From: Macrostomum lignano
Lineage: Eukaryota
Direction: 5' to 3'
DNA: 64,000 nt
NCBI GenBank assembly: GCA_002269645.1
Contig: NIVC01000200.1
Span: forward strand, 62,001 to 126,000
The position numbers and the translations under genes were made by a program. The stretch's first letter is position 1. Each line of letters starts with the position of its first letter. Below, piece by piece: positions 1,811-48,351 of this stretch. The notes beneath the pieces are model-generated. The model worked only from the letters and a program-made list of their open reading frames with translations, had not been told where the DNA came from and did no database searches.

Positions 1811-2594
1811 CTGCAATTCTCAAAATAATGTGCATGTAGGAATTTGTCACATACATGTAGAATTCATCCCCACAATACTTGTAAAACCCATGGCGACGCC
1901 CCTGAAGTCTTGTGCTTTTTTATGTGGTCCCGTTTTCAGTAAGAATGATTGGGCATTGCACTTTACTTGATTGCTTTTTATGTACTCAACTTTTCGAGGC
2001 AGAAAACCAGCGTTTACTACTACAAGTAGCTTTTTCGCCCTTGAATCAGTTTAAGTACTGAATGGCCATATAGGAATAAGTCAATCGATCAATAATCTAT
2101 ATAATTTTGAATCAGAATTCAAGTCAGTCATGTACTTTAGTGCTGACTCAGGCGGCATCGGGGTTGATTTTTTATGCACTAAAATTGCCACGGGGTCAGA
2201 GCTTGCGATTCCCGCCCGTTCGTGTCAATCAACTCCCAAGGCGTAGATCGTGTGCACTGCCTCCGATAGGCCAAGGCTGCTGTACATCGCTGTGTGTGTG
2301 CTTGAGGTTCAATCCATTCAGATGGGTTTGGCCTTCTTAAGCCCTTGATCGGAGGCAATTGTCGGGTCTCAAAGCTTAAAAAGTCAACCACTGATTGCTT
2401 CTGGCCTCCCTCATAGATGTGGCGAGCAGCTGGCTTCATCAATAAAAGAAGACAGCGAGTGACAAGCTGGGAAAATTGAAAGGTAGAAATCAGCTAATTT
2501 GGAGATTAAGCTTGATAAGTACCCTGCAGCAGGCGGAGGGGACCACCCATTCCACTGGTCCCTGGCTCAGCGTCTTCACTGCCGGAGCGACAGT

Positions 2595-3030
2595 ACTACG
2601 TAATGTGCAGAAACTGCAGGGTTTTTAGGCAGATTTGACGCAAAAAACGCAAATTATACTACTATCTGAAAATGAAGTAAGTAGTATACAAAAACGCTAT
2701 CCTAAGCGTGATATGGCAATATGTAGTCGTAATAATCCATGTGCTCATTTTAATTCCATGTACATTAATCCCTATCTATCTCAAATTGGATATGTACATT
2801 AATTCCATGTACATTAATCCCTATCTATCTCAAATTGGATATGTACATTAATTCCATGTACATTAATCCATATCTCAAATGTCCATGTCTATCCCCAATT
2901 CTATATGTACACTCACATTAATCTACAGTGTCATCCCCAGACGGTCTGAGCGCGCACCAAAATTACATGTACAATACTACATGTACGCAGAGGCGAGAAT
3001 TACTAATCTCATCTACTACCAAATGAGTCA
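2595..3030 (+). repeat. Left terminal inverted repeat with an internal ~45-50-bp tandem subrepeat (aattccatgtacattaatccctatctatctcaaattgg...)
   Basis: Near-identical to the reverse complement of ~20400-20714 over the outer ~300 bp; more diverged similarity (gcagagg.gagaatt, aatctcatctac, taccaaatgagt) continues to ~3030. Confidence 0.9.
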
Positions 3031-3393
3031 ACTAACAGTGTAGCGTACATCATGTATAAGTATTTACAATGAAGATATATTTACATTTAATCAGTAGCAT
3101 ATTACAGGAATCGAGACATGTACACCATCACCAGCAAATAGAATATACAGAAAATTTTACATTGTTTTTCATTAATTTTCTTTTCATAAATGATTTTAAA
3201 CAAGTTTGACACGCAAAATATGTACAATAGATTTTTACATTGGCAATTTCGCTGCATACAATACAAAAATGCTTTATGTACATTTGTATAGTAGTATGTA
3301 ACTCTTCATTAATTTAACATGCAAAATATGTACAACAATAAATAGATTTTACTCAGTCAAATTTAACAAGATATTTATTAAGCAAGGGCCACA

Positions 3394-6300
3394 TTATTTA
3401 TAACCATAAGGCCTGCTGCAGGCCCCGTACACGCGCTTCGTCAGGACGCGCTGAAACGTCTTGTCCATACTAACAGTGTGTATGGTACAAGACGCCTTGT
3501 CGCGCCTAAACTGAAGCTGCGGCAGCTGCAGGGAGCCGCCGTGTAGTAGGGCACTGCGCAATTCATCGCTGCGCTCCCGAATCTCCGGAGTCAGGCGGAT
3601 GCCCTTGCACTTCAGGACCTGACTCCGGGCACCGGCCGCATCCTCGACAATGTAAGTGTAGAGCTTGGGCCCCCCACTTACAAAGTCGGTCATCCGGCTG
3701 CCTGCGGGCACCTCATCGGTCCACATTCCGAGGCTCGTGCCATGGGGCGGCTCCCATTGGCCCTCGGAATGCCGGTAAACGACCCTGTGTGGGGGAGAGA
3801 AAACGAGATAATTGCCAACTTGCTAATTTACATGTAATCAATTCTAAAAGAATTTTCCCAATGCAATACTTACGAGTCAGTGTCGCAGTAAATGGCCCGT
3901 TCGCCGAGCCCCTCCAATGCCTCATACAGGCGCAGCCGGGCCTGCGTGGTCGTAAAGACCCCGATTGGTACGTTGGAGTACCGGAACGGCCGCTGATTAA
4001 AATAGCGGTGCCGGTACTCTAGCAGCATAAACTCGCTGCCAATCGGTTCGCAGGCCTTGACTTTGAGGTTGGGGTCGGTCAGCCGGGCGAGCCAGTCCTC
4101 GTAGCTGGATACTATTTCGGTCGATGTCAGGTCGTCACGCTGACAAAATTTGCCCCAGAGCCTGTGTGTTGCGAAAAGCTACTGTTAGTAGAAGAAGAAA
4201 TCGTTTAAAAAACAGAATTTATAATTACTTACGAATTCAAAAAGATTTTCGCTACAAAGCGAAGTCCTGGGTTGGGCTCGACCTTGTCCAGCGTGACGCC
4301 CTCCTTTGCAAAGAAATCGGCAATGTAGGCGGCCTTGTCCTCATCCGACATGCCAGGGGAGCCGCTCGACTCAGCCTTCAGCTTGAGGAAGGTGCTGACA
4401 TAGTCACTGAACAGACCGGTCCGCTTCTCTGTCCAGTAGGCTAGTGCGTGCACCACCTGCAGCCCAACTGGAAGCCCAACTGGAAGGCCTTTCGCAGCTC
4501 CGGCGTTGCCCAGGTGCCAGTTAGCGCCCGCTCCTCGTCTGAGTGGTCACAATCGTCGCCGCACTGCTGCTGCTCCATACAGGTGCGGCAAAGCCCAAAA
4601 AAGAGCTTCTTTTGCACCCTGTACGGCAGCAGCGGAATGTGCAAATTTGACGGCGGCAACACAGTCACTTTGGCAATACCAAAGTAACTAGCCAGCGCGT
4701 CAGAATCTAGCACTTGCGGCGTCGGATGTTGCACCGGGTGGCCAATCGGGTACGGGTCTTTCGACTGCACCGTCGGGTACAGAGAGACCTGCAAGTTGAA
4801 ATAAAACATTATTTTCATAAACTGTATTTTTGCAAAATATTCTACTATATTAGTAGTATCACTACTAATTGCACTTTGCAAACAGCGTTAAAGTGCTCGC
4901 CAATTAGGTGCAGATTCAGCACTTCGCGGCCGGGTAGGGCGTACACGCACGTATTGCCCTCCTCGGCACTGTACACGCGGGCGCCGAAATCTCGGCCGGG
5001 TGACTGGGCGTTCAGGACCGCGAGCAGTTGGGGGAGCACATCAACCCCGAAAGGCCCGACCTGTGCAATGGTTGATAAAGACTAAAACATTTGTATATTA
5101 ATAAAAATGCAAATTAAAATGTGCAAGATTATTTTTACTCACCGAATACGGATCGGCAGCAATCTGAAGCTCCCCAGTCAGCTTCGTCTGCAGTGGGGAG
5201 TCGGCCTTGATTGTTTGCCACGTAGTTCTCGTGATGACTTTGGCCTGCAGGTCGGCAAAGGCCTTGGACACCACCAGCGCCCGGATAAGGCACCGCTTGT
5301 CGCTGTTGGCGATGACCACGTAGTTATAGCCAATTGAATGGCGTGCCTGAATGTGCCGCTCCGCCGCATCTAGGCTGCCGCAGCCGCCCCGCGGGACCCA
5401 GGCCTTGAGCAAAAACAATTTAAAGTTGTTGCCCAAGACACTGGAGTCCGACTGCAGAACCTTGCTGATATGTTTAAATACCAGCTCTGCAGTGAAGCGG
5501 CTGCGGCGGACTGGCGGGACATTAACCGTGAGCAGCATGTTGTCGGCCGTTAGTTTGGCCGAGATGAAATCGTCAGCTTGCAAATCTGAGCAGAGCACAG
5601 AAATAATGCCCTCAAACGTGGAACGAATATCGGTAGTATCTGCTGCTGCGGTGAATGTCACTACATATTCGTAGCCTTTTGCCTTAAATTTTGGCAGGGC
5701 TTTCGCCCCGCCAAGACGCGCAATGAAGCCTGAAAAATGGAGGGTTTTGAAATTAGAATTGCGAGAGGCAGCGGCAGGTTTATGACTCATGAAATCAACT
5801 CCTTACCATCACCTTCGACAGTGTCGGGCTGGGGCGGGGGTTGAAATTGAGCCAAATCTGCAATAAAAATGCGCATGGTGACTAAAATTCTGACCGCTTG
5901 GAATTTTACAACTGTCAAAAATTTTTGATTGATTGCCTGCAGCAGCAGCAATTTTATCGCCCCACCCCAAGCAACAAAAATCGGCGAGTTGTAAAAACCC
6001 CAACTCGACACGTTCCGACACGTAGCAACAAAAGAAATGTGGGGTTGATTGACCCCCGCTTCGAATTTTAGGCTGTCAAAAATGTTTGATTGATGACCCT
6101 GATAACACTGATCCTGCTGCAGCAGACATTGTAAAATTTAAGAAAACCCCCTATCAGCACGTGTCTCCATTGTGCCTCCTTGACACCTAGCAACAATACC
6201 GCGCGGTCGCTTTTGGATTTTAAAGCTGTCTGATTAATAACCCTCACTGTAGCAGACAAGTTTTATTGCTGCCAAAACCCCTACTGTCAATTGCAGCGGT

Positions 6301-7240
6301 GATTACATCATCATGCCCGAAATCAGGGGTTGATTTGATCACTGCGCCGCTAGAATACCTGCCGCCGTGGTGATTACATCATCATGCCCGAAATCGGGGT
6401 TGATTTTATCACTGCGCCGCTAGAATACCAACCTGCCCGCCCCCCGCTGAGTCACGCGCGCGCCGCAGGATTGCTGTTTTTGCTTCTCTAGTCACATAAC
6501 CCCTGAAATTTTATGACTATCCTCTACAGGCATTATCCGGCTATACTGCTGCTGCTGCGGATATTCTCTAAAACTCTGTTATTTCAACAGGCCTGAATTT
6601 GAGAAATCCAACTTCAACGTCTATGTCAAGAGGAAATTCAGAAATTTTAAGCCAAAATGAATGCTAAAGATGAAAAGCAGCTGTGGTTCAAAGAAAGTCC
6701 ATATTTCAATAAGCGTGATTTAGAGTTTGCAAATCCCACAAATAAAAATGAATGTTGGACAAAAAGCTGTTTCCTCCGTTTACTTCAGTCTGCGACAGAC
6801 AGTCCGAATGCAGAAATTGTAAGATAATTGAGGTTAAAGAATAAAAAGCAGATTTTAAGAGAGTCCTATTATTTCAATAAGCTGAATTTACAGTTTGCAA
6901 AGCAACTCTGAATGCAAAGGGTGAAAAGCAGTTTTACAGTGGGCCTATTATTTCAATAAGCCTGATTTTGAGTTTGCGAAAGCCAAATGAATTCCAAAGA
7001 TGAAAAATCAGTTTTACAGAGAACAGCCCTATATTTTTCAATAATCCCGAATTTAGAGTTTCGTAAAAGACAAAGACGAAAAAGAAATTTTTACACAGAA
7101 TTGCAAGACTCACCTAGTTGTCTCCGCTTTGCAGCCGGAGGCTGATGCTGCTGCTGTGGTTGCTGCTGCTGCCTGGAGGGGCCGGCCTGCCCCCACAATG
7201 CCGATATTGCCGCTTCCGCAGCAGAGCGCTTCGATGCCAT
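3394..7240 (-). pseudogene. polB: Protein-primed family B DNA polymerase (Polinton type), intron-containing, internally deleted and frameshifted
   Basis: Exons 7240-7114, 5857-5807, 5729-5143, 5060-~4875, 4788-4233, 4161-3874, 3784-3394. Motifs: VSLYP (motif A, Asp missing), CRTC..C.H...ERALTGTW, K..LNS|LWGKF (B), YCDTDS (C), FVSGGPKLY, KCKGI, RPYGY. Exonuclease region absent. Frameshifts near 4470 (11-nt duplication) and ~3910 (1 nt). Confidence 0.9.
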
Positions 7241-7381
7241 TTCGATGGGGAAGGTAGATGGTTGTTGATGCTGCTGATGCTGTTGTTGTTGTTGTTGTTG
7301 TTGTTGTTGCTGATGCTGCTGTTGTGGTTTCTGCTGCTGCTGGCTGCTTCTGCGGATGCGGCTGCAGCAGCTCTCACCCGC

Positions 7382-7389
7382 TTTATATA
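7382..7389 (-). promoter_or_regulatory. Candidate TATA box of the pPolB gene
   Basis: TATATAAA on the minus strand ~140 nt upstream of the inferred ATG (7240), followed by a CAG/CAA-rich leader. Confidence 0.45.
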
Positions 7390-10105
7390 CCCGCAAGAGG
7401 GAGGGTGGGGTAGGGGCACGAGAATTGTGCGTGATTTTCTTTCCCGGGTCTATATTCTCCAGATTAGTGTACGATTGAACACTCCATTCCGCATTTGGTA
7501 TAGAAAAGTTGGGGTCAAAATTACCCCGCCAATTCTTTTCTCATGCGGTATTTTATTGGATCTGAGCGGAGCCATCCAACCGGCACTCTCGCAGGAGTGA
7601 AATGGCGACTTCGTCAGAGTACAGTCTCTCAAAGAAGAAGACCGCTTCCTCTTGCAACATATCTTTTCGACTTGAATCGGATAGAAAACGGTGTTTATCC
7701 AGAAAACAATTGGCAGAAGCTGACCAATAATAGCTAAATACAGATGAAAAATATGAAAGATAACTTCTGTGGTTTTTAAGGCCCGCCTGTCTCTGCGAGA
7801 AAATGGATGTCAAAAATCGCTGTATCAATTTAATGACCTGGGGGAAATGGGGCTTGTGTGCAAAGCATCCGATTGACAGAGGCTTGGGGAAGAGTTAATG
7901 GTCGATGAAAAGCTCTTGCCATCATCTAAAATATCCATCAAAGAGTAATAGGTGACAGCCCCTGTCTCGAGCCAAAAAATCAGAGAGACAGAGTTTTCTA
8001 CTTCTGTTTACGTAATGTTTAGGGATGGACCTGGGGTTATAGTGACAGAGAGTCAGTTATGGCATTTACGCGGTAGTAAAGAATTGCATTGGTGAGGCTG
8101 GGGTAGGTGTTGTTCTCTCCATATTGGCGAACATTAATAGTCCTGGGTTGAATTTTGATATGGCTAGAATGTATAGCGGAGAATCGTTGAATTGAAGGGT
8201 GATTCAACATGCAAAGTATGCAACAAAACCGATTCAGTGCATCTAAAAGAGGCTGTTGTGAGCTTCAGAACTGAGAATAACGTTTAAAATAGCATCAATG
8301 ACATGATTTAGTAATCGAAATCAATTGAATGCTGAAAACTTTAAGTTTAATAGCAGACTGTGTTTTTAGCCCCAATTTTACAGTGTCTATACAATATTTC
8401 CCCAGCTTCTTGGGCAATATACATGCCTATTTGAATGACAAAACAGCATTTTTGATGGTTTATTAGCTAAAATTACGATTTCTATTGATAAAATGGCAGA
8501 TTTCGATCCATAAAGTAAGCATTTTAACGTTAAAAATCGAAAAATGAGGAAAACTCGTGTTTTTCATGAAAAAATTTGCATTACTAGTAATTTAGCCTCC
8601 ATTAACTATTTCTTGGGCTGGGCTGGCTGTGGACTTCCATGTGGGATTTATTCCTGCTTCGAAGCCGTCTCAAGTAAAGTTGAAACGGCATTTGGGTAAA
8701 TTAACTGTTGAAGTTTCCAGTGATGAAATTACTGATTTTTATCCACAAAGTCTAACTTTTAACGTTAAAATTAAAAAACTGTAGAAAACTCGCCTTATAT
8801 GAAATGTGCTTTTTACGAGCTAGTAATTTAGCTTTTAATAAACTTGGACGGACCCGGTGTAAAAAGTAGGGTCAAGCGGACGTCTTTCGGACCCCGACGG
8901 GTCCTCATTGGGGTTGCGTCTGCTTTGTGAAAAAAATGTCTAGTTTTTACATTAAATCACTCTAAAGGGCCATATTTCAGTTACTTCATGGCTAAAAAGT
9001 TTGTCGACTTTGTACTTATGTGGGTCCGTTATTCGTCCCCAATGGTCCGTTTAGATCCGATCGACTCCTAAAAAATGCAAGTTTTTTCTAACGCCGTATA
9101 AATGTCCCTTTTGCTGTGATTTCGATTTGTTTTGGGTTTATTTTCAAGTATTCACCTTTGTGTACTGACAACTAGCACTTTTTGACAGTCCGATTTAAAA
9201 AGATACGTCAGATGAAAAATGACCCTTGGTCATTCTCCAGTTGCATAATTTACTACTTGTGATAGTAGAAAAGTTGGCGAAGTTTCTTTTCAAACTTTTC
9301 AAACTTTTCAAACTTTAGTCTTTTGTGTTTTGGGGCTTCTAGATTGCAGTCGCTTGACATTAGCCTTTCAGTTGAAAACAAATTAATCTTTTCGTGTGAA
9401 TGTTATATTTTCGTTTTTCATAGACTAATTTTTAAGCTATCTTTTAAAGCTACATTTTGGTTGGGGTGTCGCGTAAAATACGTATCAACAGTAAGTCTGA
9501 TCATGCCTTACTACTTTCGACAGTAGGGTTCACCAGAAAGGACTATACCCTGAGTGATAACTGCTTTTTATTAAAAATACCAAATTACCTGGTTATTAAT
9601 TGCGTACAATCACTTTGATTATGTAAATATTTTGCAGTGCCAGAGCTTTTGAATTTGGAAAAGAAGTTGGTCAAATTTTCAGTGCGCACCTTACCCGTGT
9701 GAATAAGAGTTTAGCAACGTTGGGCGTGGGTGGGTTAAAACTCAAGAATTTCGGGAAAACAGAAAGTGAATGAGCTCAATGTAGCACTGAGCCGCCGAAG
9801 GGCTGGCGCCAGATTTTGGTGGACCAGGGCCCCGAAGCCCTAACTAAGATCAGTAGCGCAACGAGAAATTTTTAGGGGGGGGATTCTGGAGGGTAAAGCC
9901 CGGGAGGAAGCGGAGGGGTGTCAGGGTTGCTTTCACAAGGTCGAAATTTCATATCCTCGAAAATACATATCTCACATAGCACCCTATCCTTTCTTATCTC
10001 CCATTATCTTCTTATTTTTACCATCTCTTATCTCCTCGCTTCTCTCGTTTCTCTCCTCTCCATTTTCTCTACTCTCAGCTCCTTTCCTAGAGAAATTTCA
10101 TATAT

Positions 10106-11015
10106 TGTTTGGGAGCCTGCTGTTTGGGAGGGGACCGCTTGCTGTTTGGGAGGGGACCGCTTGCTGTTTGGGAGGGGACCGCTTGCTGTTTGGGAGGGGA
10201 CCGCTTGCTGTTTGGGAGGGGACCGCTTGCTGTTTGGGAGGGGACCGCTTGCTGTTTGGGAGGGGACCGCTTGCTGTTTGGGAGGGGACCGCTTGCTGTT
10301 TGGGAGGGGACCGCTTGCTGTTTGGGAGGGGACCGCTTGCTGTTTGGGAGGGGACCGCTTGCTGTTTGGGAGGGGACCGCTTGCTGTTTGGGAGGGGACC
10401 GCTTGCTGTTTGGGAGGGGACCGCTTGCTGTTTGGGAGGGGACCGCTTGCTGTTTGGGAGCTTGCTGTTTGGGAGGGGACCGCTTGCTGTTTGGGAGCCT
10501 GCTGTTTGGGACCCTGCTGTTTGGGAGGGGACCGCTTGCTGTTTGGGAGCCTGCTGTTTGGGACCCTGCTGTTTGGGAGGGGACCGCTTGCTGTTTGGGA
10601 GCTTGCTGTTTGGGAGGGGACCGCTTGCTGTTTGGGAGCTTGCTGTTTGGGAGGGGACCGCTTGCTGTTTGGGAGCCTGCTGTTTGGGACCCTGCTGTTT
10701 GGGAGGGGACCGCTTGCTGTTTGGGAGCCTGCTGTTTGGGACCCTGCTGTTTGGGAGGGGACCGCTTGCTGTTTGGGAGCCTGCTGTTTGGGACCCTGCT
10801 GTTTGGGAGGGGACCGCTTGCTGTTTGGGAGCTTGCTGTTTGGGAGGGGACCGCTTGCTGTTTGGGAGCCTGCTGTTTTGGAGGGGACCGCTTGCTGTTT
10901 GGGAGCCTGCTGTTTGGGACCCTGCTGTTTGGGAGGGGACCGCTTGCTGTTTGGGAGCTTGCTGTTTGGGAGGGGACCGCTTGCTGTTTGGGAGGGGACC
11001 GCCTGCTGTTTGGGA
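10106..11015. repeat. G-rich minisatellite, 22-bp unit gggaggggaccgcttgctgttt with shorter variant units
   Basis: Directly visible tandem array; the overlapping long ORFs are repeat translations. Confidence 0.95.
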
Positions 11016-11401
11016 GATATAGTACACAATAGGGTAGATATACCAGTACACAATATAGTACACTTTTCTAGCTCTTCCTCTCCTTTCTATATAAACTCTT
11101 GAATTAAAAATTTCGCGCCTGCTATTTTATCTTTTGTAACAAAAAAACTTTCAAATTTTCAAACCAAAAGAGCTTTGTTTAAAAAGGGGCCTAGGGCGTC
11201 CAATTCCATACAACCAACCGATATTCTTATCTAAAATACCACCATAGTTAATATAGAAAAATTTATGATCCTACTCCGACACAGTGGGCTGGTTGATTTG
11301 TTTCTTCCTCGCTGAACCAGAGACTTCTAAATATAACGGCTGTTATTATTATAACTGTTATCTTCAGAGCTTTCTGTTCTGAACCACTTGACCTGCATAA
11401 C

Positions 11402-11406
11402 AGAGA

Positions 11407-11438
<32 letters not shown>

Positions 11439-11442
11439 AGAA
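11402..11442. repeat. (AG)n microsatellite at the 5' break of the RT fragment
   Basis: Directly visible. Confidence 0.9.
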
Positions 11443-11449
11443 ACTGAAG

Positions 11450-14035
<2,586 letters not shown>

Positions 14036-14061
14036 AGGCACAAGGACATATTGGTACCCAC

Positions 14062-15316
14062 CTGCATAGGCGGTAATCCCCCGGTGTACGCTCCTCTCCA
14101 ACAGTTGTTGGATACACTGTGCGTCTCTCGGCAGTCCTTGCGACTACTTTGCAATACGGACAACCGTGGTGGCCATTATGTCCAACAGTAGCCGTTATAA
14201 ATGATCTGAATTTCAGATGTAAAAATAAATGTGCTTTCATGCTCTGTAATTATATCTAATTAGATTAGAACCTGAAGATAGATACAGGAGATTCGCGTTC
14301 TAAAATGATTTAATTACACTTGTAATATACAAACCTAGCGGGGGCATCACAGATGAACCGGGCATTGGCGATACGAACTGGGATTCGGTTGACCAGCACG
14401 AAATCCGCCATGAAAGTCGCCATCTCATCGCAGAATTGCGCCAGATATTCTTGCAGAGGTGGTTTGCCGATCCCCGCATAAACTGAATGTTAATAAAAAA
14501 GATAGGGTATGTTGTACACATGTATTAGTTTATGAGAAGAGATACTAAATTAGACAGTGGCTTTAAATGTATAAAGCAAAATTAAATTTTACCTGCCACC
14601 GGAAGAGGACGGCTGGAACCGTTGAACAACGCCAAAATCGGCCAAGCGGAGAAATTTGAGGAGTTGTACAGTGGCATTCCGTCTATGCCGATTTTCACGT
14701 CAATTTCATAGCCCTGTGTGCCGTCGGCTAAGATGGTCGGGCTCGGCAGAGTGATCTCTTGCTTTTGTAGCAGGAAGTTGAGATTGGAGGAAATCCCGAG
14801 GTAGGCAAAATGGCCATTGCCCATTTCGTGCTTCGAGAAGCCTCCTTTTTTAGCACATCCGGACATGTGCGTGAGCAGGTGCACAGTCTTTGCGACTGGC
14901 AGGCCGCGGCTGCGAAGCGCATTTAGAAGAAATTCCATTCCTCTAATTGGCACTTTATACTTCAAAAAGAAGACCAACAGCTCTTCGTTCAAGCTCTCCA
15001 GGCTTGGCTGCTGTGGCGTGTCGTCATCGGGCTCGGGCTCTTCTACAATGACATCGTTGTCTTCTTCGCTATCGATGTCAGCGCAGAGATAGTCGAAGAG
15101 ACGATTTTGACGCACAGGATCGTTATTTTGAGTACTGAACTCCATTTCTGACTTTTCTTCGGAACAATTAGAGTTTTGAGAGTCAGGGACTTCCGTGGAC
15201 TTCTCAGCCGAGTTTTCCATTTTTTTGCCATCGTGACCGAAAAAAGTGGATGACAGCCAGTCGCGAGTTCTACGCGACCTGTTTGAGTCACCTTGACTCC
15301 CCCTTCGTTTATACAT
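14062..15316 (-). mobile_element. CMC (CACTA/EnSpm-like) transposase, 5' part only, three exons
   Basis: Exons 15316-14593, 14482-14335, 14205-14062 splice in frame. Motifs G.FAYLGI, IGIDGMPLYNSS..SAWPIL, FICDAPAR|SF, GHNGHHGCPYC. Cut off by (TATC)n about 27 nt into the next intron. Confidence 0.85.
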
Positions 15317-15770
15317 TAGAGGAGCAAATACAAAGCAATGTTAAATCAAGTAATATAGTTATAGCCTTTATCGGAGTTGAGATTATCGAGTGGGATACAC
15401 TGGGATTGTTAATAATAGAATAGCGTAAAAATAGCAATGAAAAAATCATCAGACTGGCGATGAGTCGGAGTGTGAGGTGAGACACGAAGCGCGCGGGGAG
15501 CGGGGTGGTTGAATTTTTCTGCCATCTTATTGGTCTTGAGACTCCGCCCCACACTGGGTGCGCTTGTGAGAGAATGGAAAGGGAGAGGGGGGGAAGGGGA
15601 GTCAAGGGTTGGGCCTATCCCAGGCCGGGAAAATCTTTTTCCCTAGATATATTCAGCTCGCGTATTAAATACTGAAGTATATTTCAGCATATTATAATTC
15701 AGACACTCAGCTCGAATATTTTTACTGCAACTGCATACACTGTTGATTAGCTCAAAAGTAAGCAGTTGAA

Positions 15771-17651
15771 ATGGCAGCAGAAGACATCCGGTTCATCGTT
15801 TTCTTTGAGTCTGACAGACAAGTATTAGAAATCGACACCCATAGCATTACTCTTGGAGAGTTCCAGGACTTTAGCATCAAAGACTGGGAATCCTTGAATG
15901 CCACCGATCCGTATTCGACCACCCGCATAGAAGTTCGGGCCGAATATGAAGGCCATTGGTATGACGCCGTGGTCATTCAAGTGGTCCTCAATCCGGAAAC
16001 GGATACGGACCCGGTGATATTTAAAATCCGGCAGCTTGTCGAGAAAAAGAAAAAGTCAACGGAGGGACTCATGCAAGCAGTGCAGCGCGTGCACACCGGA
16101 AAGCAGCGAATCCGCATGCAAGCCCTTCAGGTAAGAACTTAGATGCTCTTAATCCTCATGAACTGAACGTGCTCTGCAACCCAAAGATAAGTTATTCTGC
16201 TTTTAATGAAAACAAAATGCATTCTTTTTACCAGAATATAAGGACATCGGACAGTGAAGCATCCGACTGCCCAACTTCACGCATGCCAGCGAGAACGCCA
16301 GCAGTGGTCGAAAGCAGACCTACTCGACCAGACCTGCCCCCGCCTCCAGCATCTTCCGTCGTGCTGACACCACGGTCGCGGTCCACAGGCCCAGATGCGA
16401 CGCTGGTGTCGGATTTAGCGTCAGAGCCAGAGGCAACGGCATCGCCTTCTGCTGCAGCCGTCGCAGTAAGATCTACACCGGCCGGGCCATCAACGGTATC
16501 AAAGCAGAAGCCCTCCTCTGCCATCCCGTCTGACAATGCCGAGGTGCGGGAAGAAGGCATCGGCAGGCTGCACAGCGCGACTGCTCGCCGATTCCAAGAC
16601 CAGCTGCGTGCAGATGGCTTCGACCCGAATTCCACGGAAGGTGTGGCATACCTTTCGATGCTAACTGCTCGACGCCTAGCAGAGATGGAGAGGCGCCAGC
16701 ACCAATTTGAGCGCCAAGTTATTGACCTCCTCGAAGGCATTTCCGCTCATTTGGCATCTCAAACTCGACGCGGCCGCCAAGAAGAAACCGCCGTTGAGTT
16801 CACGCAAATTGACTCGTGGCCGGACTACCTCAGCTTTATAACGTCGATTGAAGCTCAACAGCGCCTCGTAAGTTTTCATATTTGCTAGATTAATCACAAA
16901 CAGATCTAATCCAAATTAAAAGCAATGAACTTATACTCATAGAAGAAATAATATACTTGTGCTTTCAACCTACTTGCAGTAGTATTGTAGTAATATAATT
17001 TTATACTTCTTTTGCTTTAAAAATAATAATTTCTACTTCATTCCACTTCAGGGACCCAGTCTACGTGGCTGCCGATGCGCGACCCTACATGAAACGGTCC
17101 GACGGATGCTGGAAAAGTGCATGTCGGCTTCAATGCTAAGTGTAGTCAACTACAGTGGCCGTGGCATGGCGGAAAGGCTGAACCGGGCTGTTCCTGGGCA
17201 TGGCGCGACCGAGGCCGAACTGGGCTTCCGCAATGCCATGAATACCATTCAGGGTGAGTGCTCTTTGTATTCAGTATTCGTTTTTGATGGAACTTAGAAA
17301 GAATTAGAAATGAAAGAATACGTAAAATACGCATTTAGAGAGATTTAGAGTTATATAGCGACAGGTACAGGGAGGCAGATAAACATGTTCCAGGTCCTCT
17401 CTAACCCTGTGTGCAACCCACCCAAACCTACATTTACAGAGGCAATCAGGTTCATATATCCTGAGGACAGAGGACGACCCTCTGAGCGCGATGTAGAAGT
17501 CGCCGTTATTCAGGTGCTGAAACACGCTGCCGAGAGGGAGGCCGCGCGCCAACGTAGAAAATCCCTACGTGAAGAGCACCACGAAATGCCAGGAGACACC
17601 AGCGAGGCGCAGCAAGGGATGAGAAAGCGGGCCAGAATTGACTCTGATTGA
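15771..17651 (+). CDS. DUF4806-like transposon accessory protein (~468 aa, four exons), head-to-head with the CMC transposase
   Basis: Exons 15771-16130, 16235-16867, 17052-17253, 17440-17651 join in frame. S/P-rich linker, coiled coil, C-terminal ETVRRML...VNYSGRG...EVAVIQVLKHAAER pattern resembling DUF4806 partners of animal EnSpm-like elements (family assignment from memory). Confidence 0.7.
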
Positions 17652-17744
17652 GATGCCGAGGAGTAACTGTTTATTTCTTTTGCACCCCAAAAACATTAAT
17701 TTTCTGGATACGCACCAGAATATCCTATGTATTAAAATTCAGAT

Positions 17745-18650
17745 AGAGATAATTAGGATTCAGGTAAGAGATAATTAGGATTTAGGTAAGAGATAATTAG
17801 GATTTAGGTAATAGATTAGGATTCAGATAAGAGATTAGAATTCAGGTAAGAAATTAGGATTCAGGTAAGAGATAATTAGGATTCAGGTTAGAGATTAGGA
17901 TTCAGGTAAGAGGTTATAATTCAGGTAAGAAATTAGGATTCAGGTAAGAGGTTATAATTCAGGTAAGAAATTAGGATTCAGGTAAGAGATAATTAGGATT
18001 CAGGTAAGAGATAATTAGGATTCAGGTAAGAGATAATTAGGATTCAGGCAAGTGATTAGAATTCAGGTAAGAAATTAGGATTCAGGTAAGAGATAATTAG
18101 GATTCAGGTAAGAGATTAGAATTCAGGTAAGAGATTAGGATTCAGGTAAGAGATTAGAATTCAGGTAAGAGATTAGGATTCAGGTAAGAGATTAGAATTC
18201 AGGTAAGAGATTAGGATTCAGGTAAGAGATTAGAATTCAGGTAAGAGATTAGGATTCAGGTAAGAGATTAGAATTCAGGTAAGAGATTAGGATTCAGGTA
18301 AGAGATTAGAATTCAGGTAAGAGATTAGGATTCGGGTAAGAGATTAGAATTCAGGTAAGAGATTAGGATTCAGGTAAGAGATAATTAGGATTCAGGTAAG
18401 AGATAATTAGGATTCAGGTGAGAGATTAGAATTCAGGTAAGAGATTAGGATTCAGGTAAGAGATTAGAATTCAGGTAAGAGATTAGGATTCAGGTAAGAG
18501 ATTAGAATTCAGGTAAGAGATTAGGATTCAGGTAAGAGATTAGAATTCAGGTAAGAGATTAGGATTCAGGTAAGAGATAATTGGGGTTCAGATAAGAGAT
18601 AATTAGAATTTAGATAAGAGGTTATTAGGATTTAGGTATTATATCAATAG
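17745..18650. repeat. Tandem array, 19-22-bp unit attag(g/a)attcaggtaagag
   Basis: Directly visible, downstream of the DUF4806-like stop codon. Confidence 0.95.
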
Positions 18651-20261
18651 AATTCGGGTATTTGATAATTAGGACTATTTCGGCCACTGCTGCCAAACCT
18701 GCTGCTCAACGACCCTGCCCCGTTCTGCTAATGTTGCGCTAAGTGATGTTATATATTTCATACTTTCTATTTTACCCGTAAACTATATGTAACTACGTAA
18801 ACAGGAAATAAATGATAACTAAAATGCATTTTTCATTTCGCTCTTCAAAGTCTTCGTATACGTGATATAACTTTAACAAACTGAAACACTGCACGCAATG
18901 CAACCTACTGAAAGTAGTGTGTAAATACTGGGGTCGAATAAAAGATTGCAAGTAGGAGTCATGAGGACCCCTACTGAACAGGGTCCGGTCTGCGTCTGAA
19001 TCAGTCCTACATCAGCGTCTGGCGGACTCGATTTCAGTAGGACATAAGCACCCTACCCAGACGGCCCAAAACTGACGCCCGATGGACGGCTTATTTTTAC
19101 ACCGGGGAATTCCAACTTGGAGAGGTCAGTGGGTGATTCATTCCTGCTTCGAGAGATCGAACTTTCATAGAGTCTGAAAGCTTGAAGTGAGAGGGCAGGG
19201 GAAGCGATAGAATTGACATAGCCGCACGTTTTTGGGCGGGTGGACTTCACTACTTCTAGTATACCGCATTGGTCATAGTGCCAAAGTATTTCTGTGACAA
19301 AACACATCTATAGAATTCAGTCTCGGAATTGTATGCAGAGGAGACACTGATTCATAGGCTGTGTACATTGACAGATGTGGCTGGGGTTTGTCAATGCAGG
19401 TGGAGGTTGACTCGGATTTGCCCAGATTCGTGGGGTTGATATGTGCATTAAAAGTTGGTTTCTTGCTAACTGGGGGTGGCATGGATGACGTAATTGGATA
19501 AGAGGGGTTTTGCTGAATGAGGTTTAATTTAAGGTCCGTGCTGTGAAAAGATCTGTTTGAACACTGAAATGGAGAGAGGGGTTGGAATTCCTTGGCATTT
19601 ATTAGAAGGGGGACAGAGAGAACAGGGACGAGTGGTTCTATTCGATTTGCTATAGGGGTCTGCTGACCATTAGAGGGGTGGCTGTTTTCAAACAGTCTTG
19701 GGGTTGAATTTTGAATATGGCCGGAGATAAAGGGTGATTCAACATGCAACATAATTAATTCCATAGTGTACACCAGCGTCAGTGGCACATTTTGCGGATT
19801 ACAGCGCGACAAGGGGTCTTGTATCATCTGCACTATCAATACAATAGATATATAAAACATTGCTTTCACAGTCTTGATTTAGAGGCCGACTAAATAAATA
19901 TATACTTATCAAAGCTCGGCCGGCTTTTTGTGTAAATATATATACGTCTTTTGACAACTTATTTGACTCGGGTAGAGGCATTGGGAATGACGTAATTGTC
20001 TCGGAGTGGTGACGAGGGCTGAATTCTAGAGGTATGAAGTATAAAAGGAGTGGAAATAACAGTGTGGACCGCGATTTTTGGCTGACTCATGCCTCCTCTG
20101 CCAATTTTGGGGGATGGGCGGCGGTTTCTGCGTACACTGTTTGCTTTCTGTGGATCAGCAGATCATGAAGAGTTAATTCTTGGATGTGCGGCCGCTTTGC
20201 AAATTTTGGGTATAATATCAATATGGGTGGGTGGGCGCTTCTGCATGCTGTTTCAACTATT

Positions 20262-20714
20262 GAAAACTCATTTGGTAATGGTAGATGAGATTGTACAGCG
20301 CGCGCGTACACCAATTCTCACCTCTGCGCACAACTGTACACACGTAGTAGGGTTTCGAGTTGTAATTTTGGTGCGCGCGTGGGCCGTCTGGGGATGACAC
20401 TGTAGATTAATGCACATGTACATATAGAATTGGGGATAGACAATTTGGGATAGGGATTAATGTACATGGAATTAATGTACAATTTGAGATAGATAGGGAT
20501 TAATGTACATGGAATTAATGTACAATTTGAGATATTTAGGGATTAATGTACATGGAATTAATATGAGCACATGGATTATTACAACTACATATTGAATCAC
20601 GCTTAGGATAGCGTTTTTGTATACTACTTACTTCATTTTTCAGATAGTAGTATAATTTGCGTTTTTTGCGTCAAATCTGCCTAAAAACCCTGCAGTTTCT
20701 GCACATTACGTAGT
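20262..20714 (-). repeat. Right terminal inverted repeat
   Basis: Reverse complement of the left TIR with several indels and a differently sized subrepeat. Confidence 0.9.
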
Positions 20715-21203
20715 GACAGTAGGGCCCCGCTCGTCTCAGGACCTGCGTGGCCCTGAAGAAAGAGAAGCAGCCATCCCCTGAGGGCCATGTTGATTGCTCT
20801 CTGCGGTTGAGTCTACAGGTACTGTAAAGAGTGCTCTGCGCGGAGGGGGCACGGACAGGGGACGGCAGCACAAGACATAATGTGGACTTTAACGCCTCAC
20901 CTGTTCCTCTTTCATCTGAAATTGTTTTAGGAAATTCTTATAGTAGAAATTTCGAGGGAAATTTCTTCCAAACTATGAAGTCTTCGTTAAAGTGGTTCCT
21001 GACGCTGGCATGTAGCTCGTAGCTAATTAATTCTTCACGTGAGCAACTATACAAGCCAAGTATTGACGGGAACACTTGCTACTTACTATAAGTAGACAGA
21101 TACATGTAGGAAAAGATAGATGCAATCCACAACAGGCCGTTGAATGGATTGAAATTCGCTGTAAGTTGGTCAATACGAACAGCCCAGGCCTTGATCGGCT
21201 TAT

Positions 21204-23403: not shown

Positions 23404-24990
23404 ATGTCGGGAACCAACAATGATCACCACGGCGATGGCGGCGGCGGCGGTGGCGGCGGCGGCGGCGGCGGCGGGCCTCGTTGCGGAGGCCAGGGCCCGG
23501 TGCGCTTAAATTCAGTAGCTCGAGAGGCCATCACCAGTCAGCTGACCGAGGAGCAAGTTGCCGAGTTCAAGGAGGCCTTCGCCCTATTCGACAGAGACGG
23601 CAGCGGGTCCATCACCGTCAGAGAGCTGGAGGTCATCATGCGCTCGCTTGGTCAGAATCCGAGCGAACAGGAGCTCGCTGTGAGTAGCCAGTGACTCATC
23701 TGCTTATCTGGTGTGCTGGTTGCGAATCATTGGAATTTGCCGAGTCACAAGGACATACCTGACGATTAAAAAGTCTGGGCCTCTTGTATACCCTGTGTGA
23801 ATTAGTGGCCAGGTTCCAAATCACCCCAATAAAAATTTCGCTCCTCCAAAAACTATGTGAAACAATTGCAAGCTCAGGGAATGAAAATAGCTTGACTTTG
23901 CCACTTCATGGACGTGGCATCCGCCGGCTTGAAGACAGTGGTAGGGGCGCCCACCAAAAGACACGGGCGCCAACCAAGAGACAGGGACGCCGTCAGGGAC
24001 AACCAAGAGACAGGGGCGCCAACCAAGTGACAGGGGCGCCCACCAAAAGACACGGGCGCCAACCAAAGAGACAGGGGCGCCAACCAAGACACAGGGGCGC
24101 CAACCAAGAGACAGGGGCGCCAACCAAGAGACAAGGGCGCCAACCAAGAGACGGGTCGCCAACCAAGAGACAGGGGCGCCAACCAAGAGACAGGGGCGCC
24201 AACCAAGAGACAGGGGCGCCAACCAAGAGACAGGGGCGCCCACCAAGAGACAGGGATGCCCACTAAGAGACAGGGGCGCCCACCAAGAGACAGGGATGCC
24301 CACTAAAAGACAGGGGCGCCAACCAAGAGACAGGGGCGCCAACCAAGTGACCAAGAGACCAAATATATGCGTCCTTTAGGGGTGCGGCCGTTCAATTAAA
24401 ATGTATGCGAACGCCACTGATGTGAGGCTGTGAGCGTGTGGCGTGCCTGCGTACAGTATTGTCGCGCTCGTACTGTCACGTACAGTATCGCGCGAGAACG
24501 CCCATCAGGATTCAGCGGAATGGACAAAACTCCCTCAGGGTTTGATGTGGGACGATTTCAGGATGCCAGGGTGCCCCACAGCCTTTCTGCGAATAGTTAA
24601 ACTTATCTCGTGTACTGATAATGTGTACGCACACTTCTACGTGCTTATTTTAACATCCAAGACGATATAAAATGCCAACAGGAGATGATTCAAAGCGTAG
24701 ACATCGACGGGAACGGTGAGATTGACTTCCCCGAGTTCATGGCCATGATGGCCGAGAAGCTGCAGGACACCAACTCGGAGCAGGAGATCATCGCAGCATT
24801 TCAAGCCTTCGATCGAGACGGTAACGGCTATTTGAGCCGCGAAGAACTGCAGGGCATCCTGATGCACTTCGGCGAGAACAGCATGACGGAGGAGGACATC
24901 ACGGAGATGATCTCGGCGGCCGATCGCAACGCCGATGGCAAGATCCAGTACGAAGAGTTCGCTCACTTCATTGCCTCCGTTATTCGTTGA
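23404..24990 (+). CDS. Calmodulin-like EF-hand protein (194 aa, two exons) with a poly-Gly N-terminal extension
   Basis: Exons 23404-23679 and 24682-24990. [18 protein letters not shown]; four EF loops [48 protein letters not shown]. Too divergent to be canonical calmodulin. Confidence 0.9.
23943..24352. repeat. 20-bp minisatellite ccaagagacaggggcgccaa in the calmodulin-like intron
   Basis: Directly visible. Confidence 0.95.
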
Positions 24991-26409: not shown

Positions 26410-27750
26410 CGTAGACACAGCGGGGAGGCGGCGAGGGTCGCCCATTTCGCTAGCCGCCTTCGGCAGAGGCGGGGGACCGGTCAGGGTGGTCCTCCGTGGG
26501 GAAGAAAGTTGGCTCCTCGTGTCGCCCGAAAGAACTGGATGAGCCGTGGGATTCTGACGGGCTGGCAGATCTTGTCAGTTGAGGATCGGCCCGAGGTATC
26601 GTAGCCGCGGTCTCTGGTAAAGAAAGGGCAGTGACAAACAGTGCTGAGCATCTTCATTGTCGTACTCGCAAAAAGGGCAAAGTTCACTCTCGAGGTCGCC
26701 TCGGAGGGAGCAGTGCCTTGCAACGTAGCCATGGCCGGTAGAAATCATGACAAGGGCTCGAATGTCCTTCCGATTTTGGTTCAGAAGTACATTTCTGAAC
26801 CTGCGAAAGGGGCACGGAACCTCAGCAGCGATTGCCTGCAGTTCTGGGTGCCCGCCCATCTGTCCCTGTGAAGGGAGTCAGCCCAGTCATCGATCTGACG
26901 ATTGATGACCGTCGAAGGGATAGGGACCAGGCGGGCAGGGCCAAAGAAAAATCCAGAGCCGCCCCTCTTGGCGAGGGTGTCTGCCAGCTCGTTTCCCGGA
27001 AACCCTGCGTGCCCTGGGGTCCACTTCAGCCTGACAGTATTGCTACTGGCCAGGAGGTTAAGCTGCCGGGCGCAGTCGGCGACTTTCCGGGAGTTCGTGG
27101 TGTTGTGGCAAAGGGCCTGTAAGGCCGCTTGGCTATCGGAGCGGATGACAATAAGTCTCTCCTCTCGTACCCTTGGCGTTCAGCTCTGCGGCGCAGGAGC
27201 TGATGGCAAGGACTTCGTTCTGAAAGACTGTGGGAGAGTCTGCCAGTGTGCTGGGCCTGCGTGGCAATGACGCGGCCGTTGATGATGATGCAGACTCGCA
27301 AAGCCGGCGTGGCCGTCTTTGATGAATCCGTCCGTGTAGCAATGGACCTCCTGGAAATTCCAGTTGTCAGTGGCAGCATCCTTAGAGGATGGTGACCTTG
27401 TAGCGCTGAAAGAGGTTAAGAGTGGGGGTTCACTGTCAGATAAGACGTGGAGCCCGCCGCCGTCTCTCAAGTCCTTTAGGCAGAGGTGGGCGTGAGGCAG
27501 GAGCTTGCGCTTAGTCATGGCCATGGAAACGATCAGACGGCGGGCAGTCTTAGCCGCTTCCCTGCCGACAAAGATGTCCAGCGGGGGAATGTTGAGGAAG
27601 GCTTTGAGGCCATCGTAACGAGCAGACGGGGGGCGCTCATGATCATGTGGCATGCGTGTCCTTGCGCTCTCCTGAGAGTCTCCAGGCAGCTGTCTTCATC
27701 TGCAGGGCGCTAGCCCAGATCAGGCCGCCGTACGAGATAGCAGGGCCTAA
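26410..27750 (-). mobile_element. Degenerate non-LTR retrotransposon 3' fragment (RT thumb, RNase H, Cys/His knuckle), related to the 11450-12840 copy
   Basis: VRP.ISYGGLIWAS, AFLNIPPLDIFV..EAAKTARRL, HCYTDG, ISTGHGYVARH, CPFC...EDAQH. Multiple frameshifts. Confidence 0.85.
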
Positions 27751-30700: not shown

Positions 30701-32749
30701 AATGCAGTTAAAATTCCTACACAAAAATGTTATTTTCGTTGGGATTTTTCACGGCCAAAAATTTCATCGATGTTTACTGTAATTTTCGCTATATTTCTTT
30801 TACATTATTTTGATCTTTTCCTAGCAATTGGGAAAAATCGTGCATTCTGCAAGAAATACTAAAAAATACCGGCACATTTTTATTTATTTTGAAAAGTTTT
30901 TAACAAAGCCAGTATTTTTAACTATACTAAATTTCTAAAAACACTTCTAGAATGATTCACAACAAGTAAAAAATGCTTTTACAAGAAATTTCCCAGTTTT
31001 TTTAACAGAAAGCTTTTACATTAAGGTCCGCGTTTTTTAAACCTATAATTTCCTATTTTTAGCAACAAAGCCACGCCCGCCAAGTACATACTACACGCCC
31101 ACCGAGCTCCGTCAGTTTCACTAACTTCACTCTTCGTCATACTTGAGGCTTTTCACATTACCAATTCCAGAACCAGTAATCGTTCGTATCTTCAAAAAAG
31201 CACTATAACTATTTACTTTGTTGAATGTTTGACTGCCTTCACATTAATTACATTGTTCTTGGCTGTTGCCATTCAGTAATTACAACTTTATAGCTCATCT
31301 ATATCTCTAGTTTAGGAGACAAAAAGTTATATTTTACAAATTGAATCTGGTTCTAGAACCAGAACAAGCAGTATGAAAAGGCCCTTGTATTAGGCCTTGT
31401 AGTGCAAAAGATATATTTGCTCATTTGTTGGAAACAATGTAGGGGGCCCCTAACAATTTTGTAACATTTTCTAACAATGTCAATAGTTGGTCTAAAATTT
31501 TGAAATTTGCTCTAAATTTGATTTTTTTCATTTGTCATATGACAAAGTCGTTCTGTACTTGGCAATCAAAGTTTTAATAAAATAATTAAATGTACAAAAA
31601 AGTAAAAAGATCATCATGACAATTTTAAACTGTTTACTTTTACTTTTCCATAAAAATTTGGAATCCTAGACTAGACTAGAGAATGTGGTAACTCAAACTG
31701 GGTTTTTTGTCTAGATGTTAGGTTGGGTACAATTTTGTATCCAAGCCCAAGGTTTAAATTAAGGGTCCAAATTTTAAAACCAAAGTGGGGCACTAGGGCC
31801 TAGTTAGACTATTAGTATTGCTACAACTAAAAAAATAAAAATTAAATTTCAGAAGCAAAATAATGAGTCATAACATGATAACAACTAGGGCTTATACTAG
31901 GCCAGCTATTGCATTTAATTTTTGGCAATAGTACAGTTTCGTTTGTGAAATTATTTTTTGTTTTAATTTGAAAGTTCAAAACCAGAAAACAATAACAATG
32001 ATAAAAATTGATGTTTTAAACCATTCTGACGATTGTGGCAAAGTTTTTAGCTCCCTGGTTGCCAAACTTGCCAAGTTGTCATTGTGTTCTAATTATGTGT
32101 TCTAATTGTGTTCTAACTAATTATGTCATCAAGCTTTGCATGGAAGTGTAATGTAAATGTCTTATTAATTGTAATTTATTATAATGCTAGGATTTTTCTG
32201 AAAGTTCCGGAGCTAATATGTTGCATATAAATACACAAAGCCAGAAGCAAATATCTCCAACTGTTTAGTCTCCTTCCAACTTTCTTTTTTTTCGTGTATG
32301 TAAACTCATATGCAATTTATTCACGAATACAACTAGCTTAAATGCACAAAGTGTAAAATGTAAGGAGCAATCGAAATTGTAGGCACACACGCATCAATGC
32401 GTCAAAAGTATTATATAGGTTAGTTAGGTTTCGTAGAAAATGAAGAAAAACAAAATGTATCAATATAAATAAGAAAACATACTTAAAACTTGCTTATACT
32501 AATTTATTTTAATTCCCTACATAAAAAAGACTAAATAAGTGAACCAAAATAAACATAAATAAAAAAGTCGTTTCGTCTGCTAAAATTCTTTGGCAGACGA
32601 AAAGGCGGCAGACGAAATGACTGCAGACCGTGTTCTAGTGGCGGATATAGAGCTTGTCATTGGGCACTATAGTAGTGGCAAATCTAGAAAAGCATGTTTC
32701 CGAAAGCCCTGTTTGCTCCAAACAGTCAGCACCACATAAATTCCTAGAT

Positions 32750-33400
32750 GTGGCTCTTGAAGAAAGCATCGCTTGTTCTATGCATGGCCCTGAATTTGGC
32801 CTTGCAATGCGCCAACGTTCCCCCAATCATGTTGGTATGGAAAGTTGTATCATTTGGGTCCATAAAATGGAGTCAATAGTTCATGACACTGTGGTCTCCA
32901 TGGCCACCAACTATATTCGCCACTTGGTTGTAGGCTTGCTAACCATTAGTCAAGATCTCTGTGCCAGGCAAGACAAACAAATTTGCTTTCATTGATTTCA
33001 ACAGTAGTGCCAGGTCTACCAAGTTGCATCAGATGGTCAATGAAATATTGGCAGCAAATGTCCTTGACAAAATTGAGCCAGTCCATAGCAATATGATTGC
33101 TCATGTGACACTCGTGCATCATGGCCATCTTGGTCTTATTCCTGGCCTAGCAGTACAGCAAGGTGATAAGCTGCTGCAGTGTGAGGTGACTATGCTTGAA
33201 GAAAGAGTTCTTGATGCTTTGTTGACTGCAGCAAGTCTTGCAGTCCCAGGCCCAGCCATCTACATAACAATCACTAGCTCAACGCTGCAGGTTCATGGGG
33301 GTCTAAGCTGGACAGGAGCATGTACATTGGTTGCCAATAAGCCCAACCTTGGCCATCTAGCGTATTATATCCTCTGGCAGCCATCAGGTCGTACGCATTT
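32750..33400 (-). pseudogene. Merlin/ISXO2-like DDE transposase relic
   Basis: DGWAWDCKTC..SIKNSFFKHSHL, DWLNFVKDIC...LGRPGTTVEINESKF, HFMDP...HTNMIGERW match Merlin-type motifs; stops and frameshifts present. Confidence 0.7.
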
Positions 33401-47568: not shown

Positions 47569-48351
47569 CTTTTTGTCACCTAGGAAGAGTTAGCCGCAAG
47601 AATGAAAATTAATTTCAGTGATATGCATGCATTAATCTGCAGTAATGCTTATGGCACAACAATTTTTTATCTGTTTGATAACAATTAAGCATTTAGTTGT
47701 TTGTTCTATAGCTAAATTTTCCAGATCATACGATATCAAGCTTTAAACTATAAATACATCTATACTCTACGCAATCAATGTAAGTGATTTAGTAATTCAT
47801 TTACCAAACAGATTTTACGAAGTGAAGGAACCCTTGTAGTAGCTTGAAATTAGTAAGACGTAACTGCCTAAGTCAACAGAATTCAAACTTATGCTGGATT
47901 GAATATTTTGAAAGAAATTATGAAGTATTTTTACTGACTATCAATATCATGTTACACTAAAATTTACACAAAATGATAAATTGAATTATCAACGTAGATA
48001 GTAGACTCAGTGCCTTAATGCTTGAATTTGTTTTTTAAATATGCATTTAAACATAAATAAGCAATTTTAAGGTTTACTGTTGCGGGAAGAACAAGATGGA
48101 AAATATTTCAACAACAAAAAGTTGTATTTTGTTTTAATTTATGACAGTCACGAAAATTACATTTTTAATTTATGTGGCTGAGTTTCTTTTTCCCGGAAAG
48201 TTTCAAAGTGAAGTTTATTATAGACAGACAAAATCTGAAAAGTAGTCGAGCTATACATTGTTTGTATTCATTATATAGTTAAATTTTTACCATCCAAGTC
48301 TCTAAAATTTATTTTGGCTTTCAATAGTGTTTTTCTACTTTGCATTTTTCC

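Follow-up and report, generated by a model that had tools for sequence, protein, structure and literature searches.

Introns shared across a clade of Polinton-type DNA polymerases and placed in catalytic motifs of a Macrostomum lignano copy

We describe a 64,000-nt stretch of the Macrostomum lignano genome (assembly GCA_002269645.1, contig NIVC01000200.1, positions 62,001 to 126,000 of the forward strand; hereafter the window, with positions counted from its first base) that carries, on its minus strand, a broken copy of what is, judging from its sequence, a Polinton/Maverick-type protein-primed DNA polymerase gene (pPolB), split by spliceosomal-type introns. Introns at shared positions can be read in four lineages of this polymerase that together form one clade, indicating that they belong to the clade and do not reflect the decay of a single copy. 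It is likely that an animal-type Polinton lineage gained pPolB introns once and kept them, and that the host splices them out in intact copies.

An initial annotation of this DNA had proposed a Polinton-type polymerase gene with five complete GT-AG introns and the acceptor of a sixth, and both the coordinates (Table 1) and the polymerase identity held. All five complete introns have U2-type features (GT..AG borders, a GTRAG donor, a pyrimidine-rich acceptor and a restored frame), none has a length divisible by three, and one reading frame fits at all five junctions. The motif GTRAG (R being A or G) occurs five times on the minus strand in 3394-5860, and four of those five are claimed donors. 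The GC content is 0.24-0.42 in the introns versus 0.55-0.64 in the exons (third-position GC 0.65-0.75 in exons 3-7), and two of the six introns, 2 and 5, have a branch-like motif at -27; what survives of the sixth (intron 4) includes its AG acceptor, just before 4788. The claim that splicing restores the frame was right as to the phases, but intron removal alone leaves no open gene here, because the frame of exon 5 shifts within a tandem duplication of 12 bp (4461-4486) and about 580 codons are absent. Exon 1 and intron 1 are the least secure part of the model: seven sister models continue through the final 214 nt of intron 1, and an exon-1-like start is found in P0027 and, more weakly, in P0071, but in no other sister model. 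Introns do lie at motifs A, B and C; the one at motif C, which had been placed right after the motif, splits its serine codon instead. The motif-B intron also splits a serine codon, in the same phase (phase 2), and its donor creates a stop after the serine, where the window's own exon-5 frame halts. A stop-free frame of 116 codons (5787-6137, minus strand) runs from intron 1 into exon 2, is taken as coding in seven sister models, overlaps a short internal repeat and has its sole in-frame Met near 5876; it is probably a prediction artefact and may alternatively provide a start.

The identity of the gene is indicated by the frame at 4444-4887, which matches PF03175 (Pfam scan, E 6e-5), and by a tree in which pPolB nests among animal Maverick/adintovirus polymerases; among phage genomes, only distant tectivirus polymerases matched (about 25%). 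The conserved Cys and His of a vOTU-like domain, named after the accessible text of PMC11071308, align with those of 14 relatives and are retained in both of the M. lignano families of this polymerase, A (which includes the window copy) and B, which are 68% identical across 937 residues. Homology links exon 3 to the N-terminal region of relatives, which bears on the question of a terminal-protein domain; its Atlas matches are unnamed clusters only.

We aligned 93 non-Macrostomum relatives of at least 700 aa with the gene. At the motif-A site, all 93 show no length difference; at the motif-B site, 89 of the 91 covering relatives are equal in length; and at the motif-C site 68 of 89 are equal, the other 21 differing by -1 to +3 residues. 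The relatives are thus continuous at the motif sites, so the intron segments are not coding insertions, an alternative that had been raised with the initial annotation. Two further proteins, P0209 (183 aa, JGI source, 1142-nt contig) and P0264 (197 aa), have as their first residue the start of exon 5 and as their last residue its end; these boundaries are the motif-A acceptor and the motif-B donor, as a gene caller would cut exon 5. Of 314 non-Macrostomum proteins, only these two start at the motif-A acceptor and only the same two end at the motif-B donor, and their identity to family A, to family B and to one another is 63-68%. A maximum-likelihood tree built from 32 selected sequences (midpoint root, no non-Polinton outgroup) unites families A and B, P0209 and P0264 in one clade (support 100/100), with a stem 0.42 changes per site long. 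The sister of this clade (100/99) is P0262, a continuous 806-aa frame, and the named animal relatives fall outside. A single intron gain on the stem of the clade would be the simplest reading of this tree. The earlier suggestion of a lineage long adapted to host splicing is supported by the intron positions shared among the four lineages, by their monophyly with respect to continuous relatives, and by the conservative protein changes described below.

The best protein matches to exon 5, at 85-97% identity, are without exception gene models named M. lignano. The M. lignano models in UniRef are automatic predictions that also use cryptic sites inside coding sequence, so wrong joins are more telling than correct ones, because they need an AG where an intronless gene has none. 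Among the 21 family-A models examined, three start out of frame at the motif-A acceptor (and two in frame), and nine enter exon 7 from other donors. Among the 33 family-B models, eight enter out of frame at the motif-C acceptor, one enters out of frame at motif B (with one further read-through there), and at the end of intron 3 there is read-through in 18 of 19; one of nine pattern matches for the motif-C acceptor in this family, at position 99 of P0071, was unrelated and was dropped. In P0158 (family B), about 71 nt of the motif-A intron are read through before the protein resumes out of frame. We also considered extra introns near the VSR-like insert and the missing middle of the gene; the recurring skips there (for example after P0043 residues 737, 828 and 1132, and into residue 1023) are explicable by GT or AG inside codons and were not counted. 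Nearly all family-B models (P0046-P0075 and others) skip most of exon 5 and the VSR-like insert, which P0157 and the GenBank protein ALD16274.1 keep; masking, extra introns or deletions may lie behind this difference. In family A, copies diverge strongly over residues 21-70 of exon 3 (29-40 of 47 positions identical in six of seven models), residues 71-130 are nearly invariant, and the translated end of intron 1 is 97-99% alike, a pattern, noted for exon-3 residues 21-70 and 131-195, that suggests either recombination among subfamilies or fast N-terminal change. Several family fragments (P0164, P0165, P0159, P0396 and P0397) are misnamed in UniRef as VgrG, FERM, polyprotein, fibronectin and NIPSNAP, and such names hide the polymerase family in the databases.

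The gene appears to have worked while it was split. When exon 3 of the window copy is compared with family-A models, the changes are more conservative than random in seven of nine comparisons (at most 5 of 300 simulations as high), which supports the view that the protein evolved under constraint while the introns were kept. In addition, ALD16274.1 (P0385, family B, 967 aa, "hypothetical protein") has no errors, runs unbroken over the motif A, B and C junctions, and begins at an internal Met, like a frame from a 5'-incomplete transcript. A search of genome contigs with P0385 gave no match, and the source of the record was not found by its accession or in the accessible text of PMC4604429, PMC4490696 and PMC5173321.

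Combined, these observations suggest the following history. The introns would have been gained once in an animal-type Polinton/Maverick pPolB, after the split from the P0262 lineage; at least the motif-A and motif-B introns would then have been kept through diversification into at least four lineages, both M. lignano families also keeping the motif-C and vOTU-domain introns. In intact copies, host RNA polymerase II would transcribe the gene in the nucleus, from the TATA-like box at 7389 to the AATAAA at 3379, and the host U2 spliceosome would remove the introns to give a full terminal-protein/vOTU/exonuclease/polymerase protein, which would prime and copy the element, with a presumed integrase inserting it with a 6-bp duplication. 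Unspliced RNA could not give active enzyme, because the introns break the frame and stops lie right behind the motif-B and motif-C serines. The introns would most likely have persisted for two reasons: a replicon that copies DNA to DNA has no RNA stage at which they could drop out, and within invariant motifs any loss other than an exact one would not be tolerated. The window copy, an internal-deletion derivative, would have been inserted by an integrase acting in trans and later struck by other transposons.

Several points weigh against this history. Splicing of the pPolB introns is deduced from DNA and protein sequences, and correct joins in the M. lignano models do not amount to RNA evidence, because the models are automatic predictions that use cryptic sites. 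ALD16274.1 fits splicing but is suggestive only, as the record may be mRNA or annotated DNA. The introns of P0209 and P0264 are suggested by the ends of these proteins alone (albeit independently of the M. lignano models), and the continuity of P0262 could itself come from spliced RNA. Two of the nine exon-3 comparisons, those with P0004 and P0043, do not stand out clearly from random change (29 and 21 of 300 simulations scored as high), P0043 carrying a model error in the compared region. PAA69755.1 and PAA80806.1, from a sister cluster, were considered as polymerase transcripts and rejected, being a host NPC2-like ML-domain gene fused into a chimeric model; the absence of transcript-based polymerase models is weak evidence, because the M. 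lignano annotation, according to the accessible text of PMC5730564, filtered out transcripts overlapping repeats. Finally, in this copy neither Pfam on open frames nor six-frame reading revealed an integrase, capsid, packaging ATPase or protease gene, and none could be tied to the polymerase family.

A bolder extension would have the clade as a branch of Polintons that left the viral life cycle, becoming a host-spliced, possibly capsid-less, self-copying transposon in which the motif introns, perhaps relics of homing elements, were selected as a splicing switch. If so, the polymerase would be active only in the cells or conditions in which the host splices the motif introns. We regard this extension as rather unlikely.

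The position of the introns raises a related question, since the three polymerase-domain introns seen here occupy motifs A, B and C. With positions scored by conservation among the 93 relatives, over the surviving part of the gene, random triples were as conserved in 832 of 200000 draws (about 0.004), and random pairs, using interior introns only, in 2387 of 200000 (about 0.012); when the motif limits are drawn post hoc, the probability is 2.6e-4 to 9.3e-4. Motif placement therefore exceeds chance modestly. Inteins and group I introns are known at the motifs of family-B polymerases, likewise in or beside motifs A, B and C, so the motif introns might descend from homing, self-splicing elements (group I or II introns, or intein alleles) that homed to the best-conserved codons of the polymerase and later became spliceosomal, an origin compatible with a single gain in an animal-type Polinton lineage. 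Group I introns also occur in protist polinton-like viruses, according to the accessible text of PMC12220804. Yet no group I or II Rfam match was found in 2500-21000 (two weak, unrelated matches were both below the gathering score), and the introns, at 71-89 nt and AT-rich, are short GT-AG introns that resemble the host-type introns of the nested genes described below; three of the six sit in the N-terminal part, outside the polymerase motifs; the motif-A and motif-C sites rank merely in the top 11% and top 21% of windows by conservation; and none of the 93 relatives has a long insertion at the motif sites. Inteins and group I introns, moreover, self-splice and often carry homing endonucleases. 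On balance, a homing origin seems improbable.

The initial annotation was silent on the copy being a broken, non-autonomous derivative and on the ends of the element. Homology to sister model P0001 ends at about 4872 (residue 344) and restarts at 4788 (residue 927); the roughly 580 deleted codons (P0001 residues 345-926) include the exonuclease domain, and the intron-4 donor was lost with them. With the frameshift in exon 5, the copy is dead and unable to encode a working polymerase. The element that surrounds it spans 18.1 kb and has terminal inverted repeats 90% identical across 374 aligned nt, flanked by an exact 6-bp target-site duplication, the sole matching length among 2-10 bp at the repeat boundary. 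Subtracting a nested insertion of 10.3 kb leaves a native part of about 7.9 kb, short of the 15-20 kb native length of Polintons, in which the polymerase is the only gene found; about 3.3 kb of it is non-polymerase, non-repeat, non-nested DNA with no Pfam match and no match to any compared protein. Under the 6-bp duplication, the termini read AC..GT, whereas those of Polintons are AG..CT. We class the copy as a Polinton-derived, non-autonomous internal-deletion element and not as a complete Polinton.

The ends and the nested insertion invite a further explanation: that the polymerase is a passenger in a CACTA/Chapaev-type transposon bounded by the outer repeats and is no longer part of a Polinton. 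The right end (20714) plus one base of the duplication resembles a CACTA terminus, and a 4-bp duplication then fits as well; an EnSpm-like transposase lies between the repeats, integrase and capsid genes were not found, and intron-containing genes are normal in CACTA-type transposons. However, the 4-bp reading requires a mismatch at the terminal base and the 6-bp reading requires none, and the transposase belongs to a nested element that has inverted ends and a 2-bp duplication of its own. The chimeric sister model P0007, which crosses a polymerase copy in antisense and passes into a PC4-domain gene (residues 774-810; E 2e-4, below the Pfam cut-off), puts a PC4-like gene beside the polymerase, a hint that longer copies carry such a neighbour, which the window copy lacks; a gene of this kind fits a Polinton neighbourhood. 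A CACTA passenger seems improbable.

Secondary insertion of introners or other short elements into integrated, dying copies is largely refuted and, in our judgment, very improbable. The window copy is indeed dead, and introners have been reported in integrated maverick-polinton-like elements (accessible text of 10.1101/2025.03.18.643946). Against this, introns occupy the same codons in four lineages that are 63-68% identical, and copies differ from one another by conservative protein changes. Nor do the five short introns resemble each other: compared pairwise, none of the 10 pairs fell below 5% of shuffles (best, 16 of 300), with intron 1 the only other part of the window checked. Equally remote is a host gene domesticated from a Polinton polymerase, which the host-like promoter, introns and polyadenylation signal and the conservative protein evolution would suit, but which the terminal repeats and target-site duplication around the gene, the broken state of the window copy, and the at least 54 models in two families, several fused to unrelated host genes (ADAM, NPC2-like and zinc-finger genes among them) and so pointing to many scattered insertions, all speak against.

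The element resembles animal Polintons and Mavericks, a group that takes in adintoviruses and elements of vertebrates, insects and molluscs, in its PF03175 polymerase with vOTU-like Cys and His (and, in sister models, a VSR-like insert), in the 30-45% identity of that polymerase to those of animal Polinton/adintovirus elements, including the Pimephales minnow adintovirus PolB, and in its long terminal inverted repeats with a 6-bp duplication. It differs in its split core polymerase, in its AC..GT ends, and in that the integrase, capsid, ATPase and protease genes were not found in this copy. Dependence on host splicing is familiar from the polymerase and terminal-protein genes of adenovirus E2B, from the P element (where splicing regulates activity) and from CACTA transposases. 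In adenovirus E2B, however, splicing adds a short leader and the catalytic frame is intact, whereas here the catalytic frame itself is split; and the transposase introns of the P element and CACTA are not within a self-replicating, virus-like element.

In the accessible literature, intact vertebrate Mavericks are intron-free (PMC8097293), and nematode Mavericks have introns confined to cargo genes, with intronless core genes (10.1101/2022.07.12.499685). The nearest known case is that of dinoflagellate maverick-polinton-like proviruses, which also carry spliceosomal introns, in the form of introners mostly inserted after integration (accessible text of 10.1101/2025.03.18.643946); those introners are repeated families, unlike the mutually unrelated introns found here at fixed codons across a clade, in an animal host. 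No report of Polintons in Macrostomum, nor of conserved spliceosomal introns in the polymerase of an animal Polinton, came to light, although subscription papers, Repbase or supplements may hold an entry; term searches in the literature on nematode pPolB diversity, adintoviruses, entomopoxvirus-associated elements, Teratorn and coral polintoviruses brought up no mention of spliceosomal introns in pPolB.

Polintons are described and detected partly by their intronless core genes, which also serve as an indication that these elements are viral in nature. Conserved polymerase introns would indicate dependence on nuclear transcription and splicing by the host, and would limit the possible host range. 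A clade split in this way would be missed or fragmented by open-frame screens; indeed, automatic gene callers gave single exons or scrambled models for this polymerase. A single gain in an animal-type Polinton lineage would further mean that intron gain in a DNA-to-DNA replicon can be dated. Because M. lignano is a laboratory animal for which RNA-seq, RNAi and piRNA data exist, Polinton expression, splicing and silencing, and the reason for the motif introns, are directly testable in it.

Table 1. Features of the polymerase gene, its element and the nested insertion, in window coordinates (a dot marks features listed without a strand).
Feature	Position	Strand	Remark
Target-site duplication, left copy, 6 bp	2589..2594	.	
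Left terminal inverted repeat with internal 43-49-bp tandem repeats	2595..2967	.	
AATAAA, likely polyadenylation signal	3374..3379	-	15 nt past pPolB stop codon
pPolB exon 7: polymerase-domain end and stop codon	3394..3784	-	
Intron 6, 89 nt, phase 2, within last codon of motif C (YCDTDS)	3785..3873	-	
pPolB exon 6: motif B second half to motif C	3874..4161	-	
Intron 5, 71 nt, phase 2, inside motif B; CTAAC at -27	4162..4232	-	
pPolB exon 5: motif A second half to motif B first half; frameshifted	4233..4788	-	PF03175
Intron 4 remnant: 3' part and acceptor, inside motif A; donor deleted	4789..4870	-	
pPolB exon 4, surviving 5' part with conserved His of vOTU-like domain; deletion junction near 4871	4872..5060	-	
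Intron 3, 82 nt, phase 0, between vOTU-like conserved Cys and His	5061..5142	-	
pPolB exon 3: N-terminal region up to vOTU-like Cys motif	5143..5729	-	
Intron 2, 77 nt, phase 1; CTAAT at -27	5730..5806	-	
pPolB exon 2, 51 nt	5807..5857	-	
Intron 1, 1256 nt, phase 1; holds 70-bp and 79-bp tandem repeats	5858..7113	-	Least secure
Probable pPolB exon 1: ATG, Gln-rich, basic stretch at end	7114..7240	-	Partial match to P0027
Putative TATA box (TATATAA) upstream of exon 1	7383..7389	-	
Nested EnSpm/CACTA-like DNA transposon: 13-bp terminal inverted repeat, 2-bp duplication	8853..19106	.	Outside polymerase element proper
LINE reverse-transcriptase remnant inside EnSpm-like element	11455..12848	+	PF00078, E 9e-18
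ATAG array, 1.2 kb, right after LINE	12840..14034		
Transposase-like gene of nested element, has introns, cut off at ATAG array	14031..15340	-	
Second intron-containing gene of nested element	15771..17651	+	No Pfam match
Right terminal inverted repeat	20361..20714	.	
Target-site duplication, right copy, 6 bp	20715..20720	.	

The nested element, whose 13-bp ends and 2-bp duplication fit the short terminal inverted repeats and 2-3-bp duplications of EnSpm/CACTA transposons, holds two divergently oriented, intron-containing genes together with 22-bp and 19-bp tandem arrays. Its transposase-like gene has no Pfam match; the Atlas leads are Plavaka (0.86) and Transposase_21/tnp2 (0.82), both below 0.9, and its motifs may resemble those of a Tnp2-type transposase. 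On either side of this insertion, 7241-8852 and 19107-20360 are residual AT-rich DNA of the outer element without a Pfam match; a stop-free frame of 201 codons lies at 19273-19878 (minus strand), and a 20-nt match links 8195 and 19730.

Elsewhere in the window, Pfam identifies an EF-hand protein (24622-24990), an RNase H remnant (26781-27179), an ezrin/radixin/moesin-like gene (35802-43809), a CH-like sperm-protein domain (46795-47589), a prefoldin subunit (51020-51358), an enoyl-CoA hydratase (54338-54754) and an ionotropic-receptor-like gene (60543-63801). Repeat structures at 41190-43189 and 31921-33811, made up of inverted arrays of 33-34-bp repeats separated by about 1.2-1.5 kb and of an 87-nt inverted repeat with 1.7 kb between its arms, are possible foldback or non-autonomous transposons.

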